Origin: a virus
Direction: 5' to 3' (one strand)
Length of the DNA: 45,653 nucleotides
Virus record (IMG/VR): IMGVR_UViG_3300045988_115079
Of this stretch, positions 6,573-9,168 are shown piece after piece. Each line of letters opens with the position of its first letter. Positions within the stretch are counted from its first letter, which is position 1. The notes beneath the pieces are model-generated. The model had not been told where the DNA came from, did no database searches, and saw nothing but the letters and a program-made list of their open reading frames with translations. The translations under genes were made by a program, and so were the position numbers.

Positions 6573-6902
6573 TCACTTGAACCCCTCAACCATTGCTTTG
6601 ACCTCAGCGGTTTTGGCGATCAGATCGTCATGGATCGCATTCCATGCGCCCAGCATGCCGTCGGCGAACGCGGGATTGCGCTTGTATTCCTCGGAATTCT
6701 TGTAGTTTTCAATCAGCTTTTTGATCACTTCATGCCCTTTGCTGTTGAATCCGAGGTGCGCGCTTGCCATTTCGCGATACCACGCTGCCGCTTCCGGCGA
6801 TTCGGCTTTCAGTTCGTATGCGGTACGAATCTTGTCCTTCGCTTCGCTGACGTTCTCGGCGATATCGTTTGAAATCTGCTTGATTAGCTTCATATCGCTC
6901 AC
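6573..6902 (-). CDS. Hypothetical helical protein (109 aa), last gene of the accessory cassette
   Basis: ORF with GAGGTGAGCG upstream. No motif recognised. Confidence 0.6.
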   Translation of the reverse strand: MSDMKLIKQISNDIAENVSEAKDKIRTAYELKAESPEAAAWYREMASAHLGFNSKGHEVIKKLIENYKNSEEYKRNPAFADGMLGAWNAIHDDLIAKTAEVKAMVEGFK

Positions 6903-6903
6903 C

Positions 6904-7341
6904 TCATGCCAGCTTTACGGCGGATGCGCACACGTGGTTGATCGTTCCGGCAACGCCGCTGATGCGCGCCGAGATCGTGGGCTGCATCGCGCAACAGGTC
7001 GCAAGGCGAATGACGGTTTCGATATGTTGCGTGATAACGCCGTCTGCCGCGACGGTATCGGTCGCGATCGCGCAGGGCATTGCGGAAGATCCATTGTACA
7101 ACTGGACTACCTGCGCGCCAGCGGCTGCAGGCGTGGAAGTCACATCGTAGCTGATGCGGAACAAACCGCCGTTATTGATTCGGAACCCACCCGTCTGGGT
7201 GGAGATTGATACGCCGGTATCGGTGATCAAATTGCCAAGTACGTTGATGTTCGTGCCTGCGGCGACATACGCCTGTTCGGCGTTGTTGTACGCCGCCTGT
7301 GCGGATTTCTGGTAGACATTCTTACAGTTATTGCAGGACAT
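6904..7341 (-). CDS. BclA C-terminal domain-like (C1q/TNF-fold-like) protein
   Basis: 145 aa. The pattern GGFRINNGGLFRISYDV...VVQLYNGSS...ISGVAGTINHVCASAVKLA resembles the exosporium BclA C-terminal domain, including the C-terminal hydrophobic K(V/L)A ending. This is memory-based similarity. Confidence 0.45.
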   Translation of the reverse strand: MSCNNCKNVYQKSAQAAYNNAEQAYVAAGTNINVLGNLITDTGVSISTQTGGFRINNGGLFRISYDVTSTPAAAGAQVVQLYNGSSAMPCAIATDTVAADGVITQHIETVIRLATCCAMQPTISARISGVAGTINHVCASAVKLA

Positions 7342-7343
7342 GT

Positions 7344-7577
7344 TTATACCTCCTTCGATTTTTCGCGCAACGCGTCTGGAACGCCAAGGCAGAACGGATA
7401 CGGCAATGTTACAAGCGGCAGTAGCGCCGCATAGCTAGCCAATTCTGTTACTGACATTTCATCAGGATTCATTTTTTCCATCGCTTTTACGATGCGCATG
7501 ATAATCGTCATAAGACGTTTTGTGTATTCGTCGTAAAACTTCGAATCATTCTGTTCCACGGTGCCAAGACCCAACAT
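7344..7577 (-). CDS. Hypothetical 77-aa protein
   Basis: ORF with AGGGAGAG upstream of the ATG. Confidence 0.55.
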   Translation of the reverse strand: MLGLGTVEQNDSKFYDEYTKRLMTIIMRIVKAMEKMNPDEMSVTELASYAALLPLVTLPYPFCLGVPDALREKSKEV

Positions 7578-7589
7578 GTTTTATCTCTC

Positions 7590-7630
7590 CCTTCTAAAAT
7601 CGTACCCGCCCGGCGCAAGGCTCGGACGGG
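7590..7630 (-). terminator. Weak candidate internal terminator/attenuator
   Basis: Stem cccgcccg (7605-7612) / cggacggg (7623-7630) with one mismatch, followed on the minus strand by acgatttta. Confidence 0.3.
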
Positions 7631-7660
7631 CACAAGCGCTGTTATAGCGTAGTGTTCTGG

Positions 7661-8365
7661 TTACTGGAACGAATAGCCGCAACCGCCGCAACCCGCGTTG
7701 GTGTACGGGTTGAAGTTGGTCTGATATGGGCTGCACGTCAGATACGCGGGCACCGGCGTTTTGTTGATCGCGGAAAGCAGCGTGTTCGTCTGCGACAGCG
7801 TGCCCAGCTGCAACTGTGCCGCCTGAAGGTTATCGCGCAGTTCCTGCATGGTGTTTGCGTTGATCAGCGCGCGCGTTGCTTCGCCCTCGGCGTGGATCGC
7901 AGTCTTGATGTCACAGCAGCATTCGGAATTCTGCTGCTGCATCTGCTGCATGCCCAGCTGATTCAGGTAGCGAGATTCCAAAATTTCTTTCTGCGTTGTG
8001 CAGCAACACTGCTGATTGGCGAATCGATTTTCCATGATGGACTTATCCAGCGCTGCTGTGCTAAGCTGATTCGCGTAGCGGTTTTCCAACACATCGCGCT
8101 GCACGCCGAACTGGTCGCGCATGATGCCGCTCTGGTTGCGCAGGATTTCGGCGGTATTGAATCCATCCGCCATCTCGCCGCGCGTCAGCGCGCCCTGCAA
8201 GCCGCTGTTGTTTCCCCAAAGTCCGCCGCCCATCATGCCGAAGACAAGGAACAGGACAACGATCCAAAAGAAACCGCCGCAACCGTCGCCGAAGATGCCA
8301 TCGCCGCGATCCTTATTCGTCACGGCCGCGATATCGGCAAGGGACATGTTATCCATAGTTTTCAC
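7661..8365 (-). CDS. Membrane protein with YjcZ-like N-terminal TM segment, ENR(Y/F)ANQ repeats and Cys clusters
   Basis: 234 aa. GDGCGGFFWIVVLFLVFGMMGGG resembles the tiny-TM YjcZ sporulation protein family (from memory). Also two CCC triplets (QQCCCTTQ, SECCCDIK) and C-terminus GCGGCGYSFQ. Confidence 0.6.
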   Translation of the reverse strand: MKTMDNMSLADIAAVTNKDRGDGIFGDGCGGFFWIVVLFLVFGMMGGGLWGNNSGLQGALTRGEMADGFNTAEILRNQSGIMRDQFGVQRDVLENRYANQLSTAALDKSIMENRFANQQCCCTTQKEILESRYLNQLGMQQMQQQNSECCCDIKTAIHAEGEATRALINANTMQELRDNLQAAQLQLGTLSQTNTLLSAINKTPVPAYLTCSPYQTNFNPYTNAGCGGCGYSFQ

Positions 8366-8413
8366 CTCGTTTTGATTTATTTATCTTCATCCCGTAGCGC
8401 TCCGGGGGAAGAA

Positions 8414-8632
8414 TCACTGATTGAAAAATCTTTGCATCTGCTGTGCCATCTGTTTGGCTTGTTCTAGTTGCTCACCGTTGATCTGCCCGCTTTGCAGCAT
8501 CTCATCCAGCTTCTGTTTCGCGCCCTGCGGCGACCAGCTTTTGCGGAATTCCCTGAACTGCTGAATCATCTGCATACCTGGAATTTTCGAATTCGCCTGT
8601 CTGGCGGCGATGCCGATCAAGGGATTGCTCAT
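8414..8632 (-). CDS. Hypothetical Q-rich 72-aa protein
   Basis: ORF whose start overlaps the upstream stop (ATGA-type coupling). Confidence 0.55.
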   Translation of the reverse strand: MSNPLIGIAARQANSKIPGMQMIQQFREFRKSWSPQGAKQKLDEMLQSGQINGEQLEQAKQMAQQMQRFFNQ

Positions 8633-9048
8633 AGATTGATACCTCCCAACGCGTTCTCTAGCTGTGTCAGTTTGTCGGATACTGCCTTGATCTCGTCCTT
8701 CGTCGCGAATTGCGATACATCGATCTGCGGCGCGCTTTGTTGCTGAGTCTGTTGTGGGTCGACTTCGATCAGGCGAAACGATTTCAGCGTTGCCGTTCCC
8801 ATGCTGTCAACCGCCTTGACGTGAATCATTGGGTCGTTGTTGTCCATCATCCACGCAGTTTGACCGGGCTGAACGATGTGATCACGCGCGCCCTGAATGC
8901 CGTTGACGTATATCCACGAAACGTTGGTCTGCGCGTTGTTCGTCTGCTGAACCTGCTGCATCTGATTCATCTGGTTCATCTGCGGCATGTAATTTGTGTT
9001 GAAGTAATTTGGGACAGGGGGCTGCTGATAGGGATATCCGTATGCCAT
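8629..9048 (-). CDS. Q/N-rich N-terminus plus compact beta-rich C-terminal domain protein (loosely GerQ-like organisation)
   Basis: ATG 9048 after GGAAGGTG. N-terminus YPYQQPPVPNYFNTNYMPQMNQMNQMQQVQQTNN, then WIYVNGIQGARDHIVQPGQTAWMM. The GerQ resemblance (Q-rich N-terminus, A(G)RDHI motif) is tentative. Confidence 0.55.
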   Translation of the reverse strand: MAYGYPYQQPPVPNYFNTNYMPQMNQMNQMQQVQQTNNAQTNVSWIYVNGIQGARDHIVQPGQTAWMMDNNDPMIHVKAVDSMGTATLKSFRLIEVDPQQTQQQSAPQIDVSQFATKDEIKAVSDKLTQLENALGGINL

Positions 9049-9130
9049 ATTTCGCACCTTCCTTTCAATATCATTTTCGTGGATTTTCGGAAATGGCGGG
9101 GGAAATCATGGGCACGGGCGGGAATGAATG

Positions 9131-9168
9131 GGAAAAATAAAAATCGGCGCTCCACTCGGAACGCCGAT
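9131..9168 (-). terminator. Rho-independent terminator upstream of the accessory cassette
   Basis: atcggcgctcc-actc-ggaacgccgat hairpin, followed on the minus strand by ttttatttttccc. Confidence 0.7.

Follow-up and report, generated by a model that had tools for sequence, protein, structure and literature searches.

What is the role of a cassette of six small genes that stands next to the attachment (att) site of a temperate phage and bears no likeness to known phage structural or replication proteins? The question is raised by IMG/VR virus record IMGVR_UViG_3300045988_115079, a stretch of 45,653 nucleotides (nt) that was analysed at its full length and is called the window hereafter. As had been stated in a preliminary description of this DNA, the six genes are co-oriented; they span positions 6573-9048 of the minus strand and are named W1 to W6 in the order in which they are read. 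That description had drawn from several spore-coat-like and exosporium-like features the idea that the cassette decorates or remodels the spore surface or envelope of the host. We find that the cassette is one copy of a widespread phage module, predicted to be transcriptionally autonomous, and that a spore-surface role as the general function of this module is largely refuted.

A conserved module in phages of diverse hosts

The synteny sample comprised 121 fetched loci, in which open reading frames (ORFs) were called mechanically, and iterative searches were carried out with jackhmmer. ORFs related to W1, W3 and W5 were found 114, 122 and 99 times respectively in these loci, and their order was constant. 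Each of the three has more than 150 database homologues and the gene order is kept in approximately 100 independent loci. Given the many homologues and the conserved order, comparison at the sequence level indicates that the cassette genes are not chance ORFs. The co-occurrence of the genes in other prophages, which had been proposed as a check, is thus borne out by the recurrence of the W1-W3-W5 order in 121 related loci; in contrast, W4 is confined to its lineage, and the sample contains only 2 ORFs related to it.

The module reads as a helix-turn-helix (HTH) gene, a terminator, two or three direct repeats in a phase of 10-11 or 21-22 bp, a sigma-A-type -10 element, W1, W2, W3, a gene for a small beta-rich protein and a gene for a helical-bundle protein. 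In most loci an ORF of ~ 70-80 amino acids (aa) fills the W2 slot between W1 and W3. The slot after W5 holds a ferritin-like protein in 56 of the 121 loci, a DUF7841 protein in 24 and a protein of the W6 type in 17-23. The profile of the ferritin-like family of the W6 slot, phrog_17879, matches Thermotoga maritima ferritin 1z4a over its full length (1.4e-5, positions 14-172).

W3-centred modules are present in the Clostridium perfringens phages PMQ04, 17DYC, HMD-PC1, CPD1 and XP41-N3. In PMQ04 none of the 68 annotated features is an integrase, and nearly all genes share one strand. Such modules were also found in Crassvirales (cr116_1, cr53_1 and others), where they adjoin the lysis genes, in C3_41T2LP, a lytic phage of Bacteroides uniformis that is in culture, and in prophages of Megasphaera, of which one stands on a 205-kb contig; the W3 core was found in viruses assigned by prediction to Methanomassiliicoccales. 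The host labels that metagenome-assembled genomes give to contigs of ~ 40 kb (Bacteroidales, Fibrobacter, Gastranaerophilales and similar bins) were not relied on, since such bins may hold mis-binned free phage; the host-range argument rests on the cultured Bacteroides phage, the taxonomy of Crassvirales and the large contigs.

The place of the module in the genome varies. The lysis genes directly precede it in the window, in crAss-like phages and in a prophage on a 799-kb contig, whose order is CHAP endolysin, holin, HTH gene, module, DUF7841 and then host genes. In a large IMG/VR group (L053) it is flanked by the gene for minor capsid protein 2 on one side and that for the scaffold protein on the other. 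In Dulem virus 36 it follows directly on the receptor-binding protein, and in C3_41T2LP it lies among recombination genes. These differing positions across phage backbones mark the module as a portable, insulated unit.

Two further observations were made in these loci. In a Megasphaera prophage (L015) a 148-aa protein is encoded at 6552-6998, between the lysis genes and the HTH gene of the module; as read from its sequence, this protein begins with a lipoprotein-like signal, continues into a coiled coil and ends in a transmembrane segment, an architecture of the unimolecular spanin (u-spanin) type which suits a diderm host. In the crAss-like cr53_1 (L124), translation with table 11 gives many in-frame stops in annotated genes, the W3 homologue included, which would fit the reassignment of stop codons known from some phages of this kind.

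W3, the core protein of the module

W3 (7661-8365, minus strand) encodes the core protein, of 231-234 aa and of family phrog_16490. Its true start is probably the ATG at 8356, since the homologues begin with MDNM. The protein carries GGFFWIVVLFLVFGMMGGG and is laid out as an acidic N-terminus, a Gly-flanked aromatic hydrophobic segment, helical repeats of 18 residues and a Gly/Cys/Tyr tail. The ENR(Y/F)ANQ-type repeats, the two CCC triplets and the GCGGCGY end that had been described were all recovered: the three repeats (LENRYANQ, MENRFANQ and LESRYLNQ) follow each other at an 18-residue spacing, and the C-terminus reads GCGGCGYSFQ. In contrast, the likeness to the YjcZ tiny-transmembrane sporulation proteins did not hold, as no Pfam or NCBIfam match to that family was obtained at E<=1. 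YjcZ, a family of ~ 40-50 aa, was hence rejected for a protein of this length with a 180-aa helical Cys-rich region.

In the alignment of homologues a near-invariant block stands out, CCCxxKxAIHAEGEATR...N..Q.LRD...PxPAYxTCSPY. Over 235 homologues the hydrophobic 19-mer has a mean Kyte-Doolittle value of 1.9, and there are ~ 10 Cys per protein. W3 has no relatives in Pfam, NCBIfam or the PDB, and its PDB profile search returned noise only. Clustering of its homologues at 90% identity gives 3549 clusters, and at 50% identity 1387 representatives remain; relatives are present on at least 466 IMG/VR contigs.

The W3 gene was also found split in two, at L089 (~ 10001-11500) and L031 (~ 6492-8312), by an inserted ORF of 332 or 272 aa, which suggests a mobile insertion, for example an intron, a homing endonuclease or a transposase.

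The C1q/TNF-like protein W5

W5 (6904-7341, minus strand) encodes a protein of 145 aa that is predicted to be a stand-alone C1q/TNF-like jelly-roll, similar to the BclA C-terminal domain (BclA-CTD) and to BxpB. Its N-terminus is MSCNNCKNVYQK, with an MSCxxC motif; it has conserved Cys and His residues and the jelly-roll begins at residue 14. A monomer model built with AlphaFold2 from an alignment of 43 sequences reached a predicted local distance difference test score of 90.3 and a predicted template modelling score of 0.82. When this model was compared with the PDB by Foldseek, it matched Bacillus anthracis BxpB (2.5e-9), Bacillus cereus ExsFA (1.7e-8) and BclA-CTD (3.4e-8, template modelling (TM) score 0.70), with further matches to C1QL2 (1.2e-6), C1q-like and TNF-family proteins and PRD1 P5. 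The modelled ten-strand jelly-roll can be superposed on BclA-CTD and C1q. Thus the claim of a BclA C-terminal domain without the collagen stalk agrees with both the structure prediction and the fold search. GXX collagen-like repeats and an exosporium-targeting motif are both absent from W5, which is not a BclA proper.

At the sequence level, W5 matches Pfam BclA_C (PF18573) at E 9.3e-5 and 22.7 bits, below the gathering cut-off of 38, and the same family is precomputed on several homologues at 56-78% identity. Among viral models (BFVD), the matches of W5 are the knobs of collagen-like phage fibres and stand-alone proteins, 130-150 aa in length, of uncultured gut phages; some of the latter bear the automatic name 'BclA protein'. 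No match was found in the INPHARED phage collection by tblastn, either with W5 or with the giant tail protein of the 100-kb contigs.

In many modules the W5 slot is taken by a second family of small beta-rich proteins of 111-136 aa (L001 6489-6848, L010 8724-9116, L123 7478-7888 and others, for example in PMQ04). These have N-terminal CxxC or CC motifs and a C-terminal Cys, show no Pfam or PDB match and have no profile similarity to W5 (hhalign probability 0.2%). Endospore-appendage subunits (ENA, DUF3992) were considered for them and dropped, no Pfam or PDB match having been obtained.

W1, W2, W4 and W6

W1 (8629-9048, minus strand) encodes 139 aa; its ATG at 9048 is preceded by AAGGAAGG, and its homologues begin with MAYGYPY. 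In the AlphaFold2 model residues 1-40 are a disordered Q/N/Y/P-rich arm, residues 43-92 form a small, well predicted beta domain and residues 117-133 a helix. W1 matches phrog_21718 at 1e-12. By fold, the best PDB match of the beta domain had an E of 0.17, which leaves it unassigned, and the PDB profile search gave noise only. W1 had been likened loosely to the coat protein GerQ; the Q-rich N-terminus is present as a compositional feature only, and membership of the GerQ family was rejected for want of profile support, Pfam Spore_GerQ giving nothing at E<=1. The sole Pfam match was DUF4430 at 0.0035, and NCBIfam gave none.

W2 (8414-8632, minus strand) encodes a Q/M-rich protein of 72 aa that matches phrog_22984 at 2e-10; the PHROGs families of W1, W2 and W3 are all of unknown function. 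W4 (7344-7577, minus strand; 77 aa) matched no Pfam or PHROGs family. W6 (6573-6902, minus strand) encodes a helical protein of 109 aa, and the profile of its type gives weak matches to the N-terminal half of ferritin only (E 0.1-0.3) and to sulerythrin (~ 0.9); W6 is possibly a reduced ferritin-like bundle. W1, W5 and W6 have neither a hydrophobic segment nor a signal peptide. Against the PADLOC defence models, W1 to W5 and the upstream HTH protein W0 gave no match and W6 gave weak matches to candidate families (8e-4 and 3e-3); a defence system was set aside, as nothing usable came from this search.

A candidate regulator and a predicted promoter

Upstream of the cassette, W0 (9469-9699, minus strand) encodes a putative small DNA-binding HTH protein of 76 aa, whose family resembles sigma-70 region 4, LuxR and KorA and which is a candidate for the dedicated regulator of the cassette and for the last gene of the lysis/late transcription unit. 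The profile of its family matches TcaR (2e-4), KorA (2.6e-4), region 4 of an extracytoplasmic function sigma factor (3hug, 1.4e-3) and RhlR (1.5e-3). Relatives of W0 lie upstream of the module in 19 of the fetched loci, and in at least 74 loci a small protein of 50-100 aa is encoded immediately upstream of W1. Of 47 non-redundant upstream HTH proteins, 11 match Sigma70_r4_2, 9 Sigma70_r4 and 4 GerE, and positional equivalents of W0 match Sigma70_r4 down to 7e-9.

W0 is followed by a predicted terminator (9440-9464, minus strand; -19.5 kcal/mol, z -5.4, then U7). The cassette promoter region (9067-9125, minus strand) is composed of repeated boxes, ATTCCCGCC at 9125-9117, ATTTCCCCCGCC at 9106-9095 and ATTTCCGAAAATCC at 9094-9081, followed by a -10-like element (GAAAAT/GATATT at 9078-9067) and then by the ribosome-binding site AAGGAAGG. 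The boxes and the -10 are kept in the nearest relatives of the window (alignment with L004, L042, L049 and L050). Indeed, the loci inspected have a common arrangement of HTH gene, hairpin with T-run, two to three lineage-specific direct repeats, TATAAT-like box and W1 ribosome-binding site. This arrangement was evaluated on 63 non-redundant loci against mononucleotide shuffles. The best direct repeat is spaced by 10-11 or 20-22 nt in 42 of the 63 loci, compared to 15.5 +/- 3.5 in the shuffles (maximum 24 in 100 shuffles), and TATAAT-like -10 boxes are found in 30 of the 63, compared to 17.9 +/- 3.3. Motifs of the SigE, SigK, SigF or SigG type, which a spore module would lead one to look for, are absent from the promoter region of the window upstream of W1 and are not enriched over the 63 loci; it is the TATAAT-like -10 that is enriched instead.

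Between its two terminators, the window has a 270-nt spacer (9170-9439) that has no Rfam match and is missing from most related loci, where the HTH terminator abuts the cassette promoter. It contains a near-consensus sigma-70-like promoter on the plus strand (9190-9218, TTGACA-17-TATTAT with TG), a perfect 10-nt inverted repeat with its arms at 9222-9231 and 9275-9284 and, at 9386-9420, a T-run hairpin that is weak (z -1.2). The spacer might encode a small RNA with an antisense or regulatory role, or be what is left of an inserted moron.

Proposed function of the module

The function that we favour, with a probability of roughly 0.4 and largely inferred from the features above, is that of an autonomous and probably very late operon for a Cys/Tyr-rich, cross-linkable assembly at the membrane of the infected cell. 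The HTH protein, made last from the transcript ahead of the cassette (usually the lysis/late one), would bind the phased repeats and switch the cassette on, resulting in a delayed, 'very late' class of expression. The Gly-flanked hydrophobic segment of W3 would insert in the cytoplasmic membrane and its long helical Cys-rich part would stay on the cytoplasmic side, given that no partner has a signal peptide. W5, as a trimer, and W1 would dock on W3; the PxPAYxTCSPY block and the Gly/Cys/Tyr tail of W3 and the disordered Tyr/Gln-rich arm of W1 are likely elements of contact or cross-linking, and the ferritin-like partner could provide metal or redox chemistry. What results would be an assembly of several proteins, associated with the membrane and open to cross-linking, whose materials resemble those of the exosporium or coat (a C1q-like trimer, Cys-rich scaffold proteins and a ferritin-like protein) but which serves the phage at the end of infection, possibly by acting on the state of the envelope at or after lysis, by protecting the phage or by excluding other phages.

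Several points weigh against this reading. HTH activation, the topology with the W3 C-terminus inside, the docking of W5 and W1 on W3 and the cross-linking are inferred throughout. The W0 protein of the window itself has no significant Pfam match (0.01) and shows only weak matches to ArpU and PHROG-248, and 420 nt with two terminators lie between its gene and the cassette. The charges beside the hydrophobic segment of W3 give no topology signal (~ 1.3 vs 1.4 K/R per side). In crAss-like genomes the labels that annotators gave to homologues of W3 are 'spike protein/glycoprotein' and 'outer capsid protein/viral fiber', which point toward a role in the virion. Finally, in the viruses of Bacteroidota and archaea only W3 is clearly homologous, with the addition, by reading, of DUF7841 in cr53_1; with partner proteins diverged or replaced, the module may be looser there than in Firmicutes phages, and as a full module it is firmly established only for the latter.

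Among the rival explanations, superinfection exclusion or another conversion of the envelope would have a membrane-anchored W3 complex block the DNA entry or the adsorption of competitors, in lysogens as well as during lytic growth. The likeness to a moron, in that promoter and terminators are the unit's own and its genome position varies, is in favour of this, together with the att-adjacent site typical of conversion genes, the membrane-type hydrophobic segment of W3 and the fact that the cytoplasmic membrane is the one barrier common to monoderm, diderm and archaeal hosts. However, exclusion is known from proteins that act singly, either lipoproteins or small membrane proteins, whereas here an operon of 5-7 genes includes C1q-like and ferritin-like partners, and the PADLOC search gave no hits; moreover, the promoter's apparent regulator is encoded at the end of the late/lysis transcript, so that little expression would be expected in a quiescent lysogen, and we consider exclusion rather unlikely. 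We judge it unlikely, too, that the module builds an accessory fibre or decoration of the virion, with W3 as a trimeric coiled-coil shaft, W5 as the distal knob and W1 as an adaptor, which would act as a portable adhesin for host or gut surfaces. C1q/TNF knobs do cap many phage fibres and the PRD1 P5 spike, W3 homologues bear the above labels of 'viral fiber' or 'spike', and the module sits inside the head-gene block in the L053 group and directly after the receptor-binding protein in Dulem virus 36. Nevertheless, a Gly-flanked aromatic hydrophobic segment of 19-20 residues is atypical for a virion fibre, as are ~ 10 Cys, ferritin-like or DUF7841 partners, a private regulator and insulating terminators; a single module would need to fit siphovirus, crAss-like and other unrelated particles, and the known fibre, baseplate and decoration families gave no match. 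A lysis accessory or timing device, in which a Cys-bearing membrane coiled coil modulates holin triggering or membrane disruption in the manner of an antiholin or a spanin, appears distinctly unlikely. The frequent place of the module right after the lysis genes (the window, the prophage on the 799-kb contig, crAss-like phages) suits such a device, and the plan of W3, with its N-terminal hydrophobic segment, helical region and cysteines, is like that of the i-spanin Rz. Yet spanins would be pointless in the monoderm and archaeal hosts whose viruses carry the module, the Megasphaera prophage has its own u-spanin-like gene upstream, the cassette encodes no lipoprotein partner, terminators stand between module and holin and in several lineages the module is far from the lysis genes. 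On the same grounds, namely no lipobox protein in the cassette, monoderm and predicted archaeal hosts and a separate u-spanin-like gene, W3 was rejected as one half of a two-component i-spanin.

Two explanations turn to protective layers. Quite improbable in our view is a phage-directed 'coat', an exosporium-like cross-linked layer or occlusion matrix of W3, W5, W1 and the ferritin-like protein round membrane remnants and/or virions, which would be assembled at the very end of infection and protect the progeny of phages of strictly anaerobic gut hosts in faecal-oral transit. W3 would be its scaffold, to which C1q-like W5 trimers, the Tyr/Gln-rich arms of W1 and a ferritin-like oxidase or antioxidant would be added, and exposure to oxygen would lead to disulfide and dityrosine cross-links; baculovirus occlusion bodies and spore coats are the functional analogy. 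The spore-surface module of the preliminary description, expressed in the sporulating mother cell with its proteins built into or onto the coat or exosporium, we hold to be very improbable. It could appeal to the best structural matches of W5, which are the exosporium proteins BxpB/ExsFA and BclA-CTD, to a Cys-rich W3 that resembles ExsY/CotY in composition only, to GerE/LuxR-sized HTH proteins in the regulator slot, to a ferritin-like partner that recalls CotJC and to the nearest relatives of the window in Oscillospiraceae/Clostridia bins. Bacteroides and methanogenic archaea are non-sporulating, however, and Megasphaera is described as such. The spore role fails because the module or its W3 core occurs where hosts never sporulate, in Crassvirales and a lytic Bacteroides uniformis phage, in Megasphaera prophages, that of the 205-kb contig included, and in predicted Methanomassiliicoccales viruses, and because sporulation promoters were not found, neither in the window nor as an enrichment over the 63 loci. 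Non-sporulating hosts thus apply to the module as a whole, not formally to the host of the window phage. Moreover, C. perfringens phages without integrase carry the module, the hidden Markov models of GerQ and YjcZ fail to match and C1q/TNF domains are common in phage fibres. What stands of the earlier interpretation is the insulated accessory cassette by the att site and the fold of W5; GerQ, YjcZ and spore decoration or remodelling do not. Its fallback, the same building blocks in a function other than the spore, is compatible with the data.

Comparison with known systems

Phage morons such as lambda bor and lom or HK97 gp15 share with the module an insulated build: promoter region and terminators are the unit's own, it is inserted at differing points of otherwise syntenic late regions and core functions do not depend on it. 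By its own terminator, predicted promoter and variable position, the module is a moron in this sense. It differs in having 5-7 conserved genes and a dedicated regulator where classic morons have 1-2 genes, in being kept across phages of different host phyla and in being apparently dependent on a phage regulator rather than constitutive in lysogens.

Late-gene activators that act on direct repeats are TP901-1 Alt and the regulators of the ArpU, RinA and Ltr type. As in those systems, a small phage protein of the HTH or sigma-region-4-like kind is encoded beside a promoter without a -35, and helically phased tandem repeats stand with a -10 of the sigma-A type. In contrast to them, the regulator of the module lies at the end of the late/lysis transcript and is proposed to control the accessory cassette only; its HTH proteins are also much shorter (66-100 aa) than ArpU and RinA.

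With exosporium and coat assembly (ExsY/CotY, BxpB, BclA, CotJC) the module has in common a C1q-like fold, a Cys-rich protein, Gln/Tyr-rich arms and a protein of the ferritin superfamily. The W5 jelly-roll matches BxpB, ExsFA and BclA-CTD at Foldseek E values of 2.5e-9 to 3e-7 and TM scores of 0.65-0.70, and BxpB and ExsFA are likewise stand-alone domains of ~ 145 aa. However, homology is limited to the folds of W5 and of the ferritin-like protein; W5 has ~ 15% identity to BclA, BxpB and ExsFA, lacks a collagen stalk or an exosporium-targeting N-terminus and is phage-encoded, phages of non-sporulating hosts included. W3, with its hydrophobic segment, has no relation to ExsY/CotY, and the module goes with Bacteroides, Megasphaera and archaeal hosts without sporulation promoters having been found. 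Compared to i-spanins (Rz) and class-I-fusion-like membrane coiled coils, W3 has a similar N-terminal hydrophobic anchor, long helical region, conserved cysteines and lysis-gene neighbours; the module differs by the missing o-spanin partner, the extra soluble partners and the monoderm and archaeal hosts.

No published description of the module was found in the literature searched. None of the libraries names its families: they are unknown in PHROGs, DUF7841 is uncharacterised, NCBIfam has nothing and the existing annotations are automatic labels only. On these grounds, we regard the module as a new kind of phage accessory system, the regulatory half of which resembles activator-dependent late promoters. 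The earlier statements that the genes are unlike known structural and replication proteins, and that no described system is so composed, are supported.

Genomic context of the cassette

The window is a temperate siphovirus-type genome with a major capsid protein of the SU10 type, a portal of the SPP1 type and a tyrosine integrase. Its nearest relatives are binned to Oscillospiraceae and other Clostridia, and the host is probably an Oscillospiraceae-type Clostridium. The position claimed for the cassette, between the lysis module and attP, is confirmed: on its upstream side lie an endolysin (10367-11368; Pfam ELLD, PG_binding_1 and SH3_3), an XhlA-like protein (10019-10363) and a holin-like protein (9705-10016), and on its downstream side an att core of the tRNA-Met type and the tyrosine integrase (5134-6321, plus strand). 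The att core is a partial tRNA (6372-6439, minus strand) with a sub-threshold Rfam match, which by reading runs from the anticodon arm and loop, with CAU, through the T-arm to the acceptor end with CCA; ARAGORN found no complete tRNA there. Apart from this sub-threshold match, Rfam gave no RNA family in the cassette or in the whole window.

Both of the bracketing terminators were recovered as strong predicted hairpins with a U-run on the minus strand. The upstream one (9143-9168; -19.7 kcal/mol, z -5.2, then U5AU5) stands directly upstream of the cassette promoter and the downstream one (6507-6561; -24.5 kcal/mol, z -7.1, then a U-run) closes the cassette. On either side of the att/tRNA fragment there is one copy of TGCAACTTTTTTGCAACTT, an exact 19-nt direct repeat (6269-6287 and 6491-6509, minus strand), with one copy within the 3' end of the integrase gene and the other just past the cassette terminator (chance expectation 0.02 copies); the copies may be arm-type sites of the integrase or a duplication of the int 3' end.

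Elsewhere in the window, the large-terminase ORF of 879 aa (26932-29571, minus strand) has LAGLIDADG_3 and Hom_end matches mid-protein (~ residues 328-405) and an RNaseH-like domain of the T7-type terminase near its C-terminus, and probably represents an intein-containing terminase. In several related loci, the lysis/module region is closely preceded by a gene for a reverse transcriptase, which adjoins one for a tail protein (L127 3930-5027, L124 2335-3357, L126 4152-5186); these are probably diversity-generating retroelements.

Significance

A BclA/BxpB-like fold in a prophage of Clostridia is no proof of a role in sporulation, and the present analysis corrects this tempting misreading. If our interpretation is true, the module is among the most widespread uncharacterised gene sets of gut phages, the crAss-like ones included, and extends over viruses of Firmicutes, Bacteroidota and probably methanogenic archaea; it would also account for a set of 'hypothetical proteins' that recurs in most annotations of gut viromes. 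The regulation proposed, in which a mini sigma-4-like activator acts on phased repeats to give a delayed class of expression, is simple and testable, and cultured carriers are at hand in C. perfringens phages of the PMQ04/17DYC/CPD1 type and in the Bacteroides uniformis phage C3_41T2LP. Solving the role of the module would add a new late function to those of phages, be it envelope or membrane assembly, exclusion, particle protection or adhesion.

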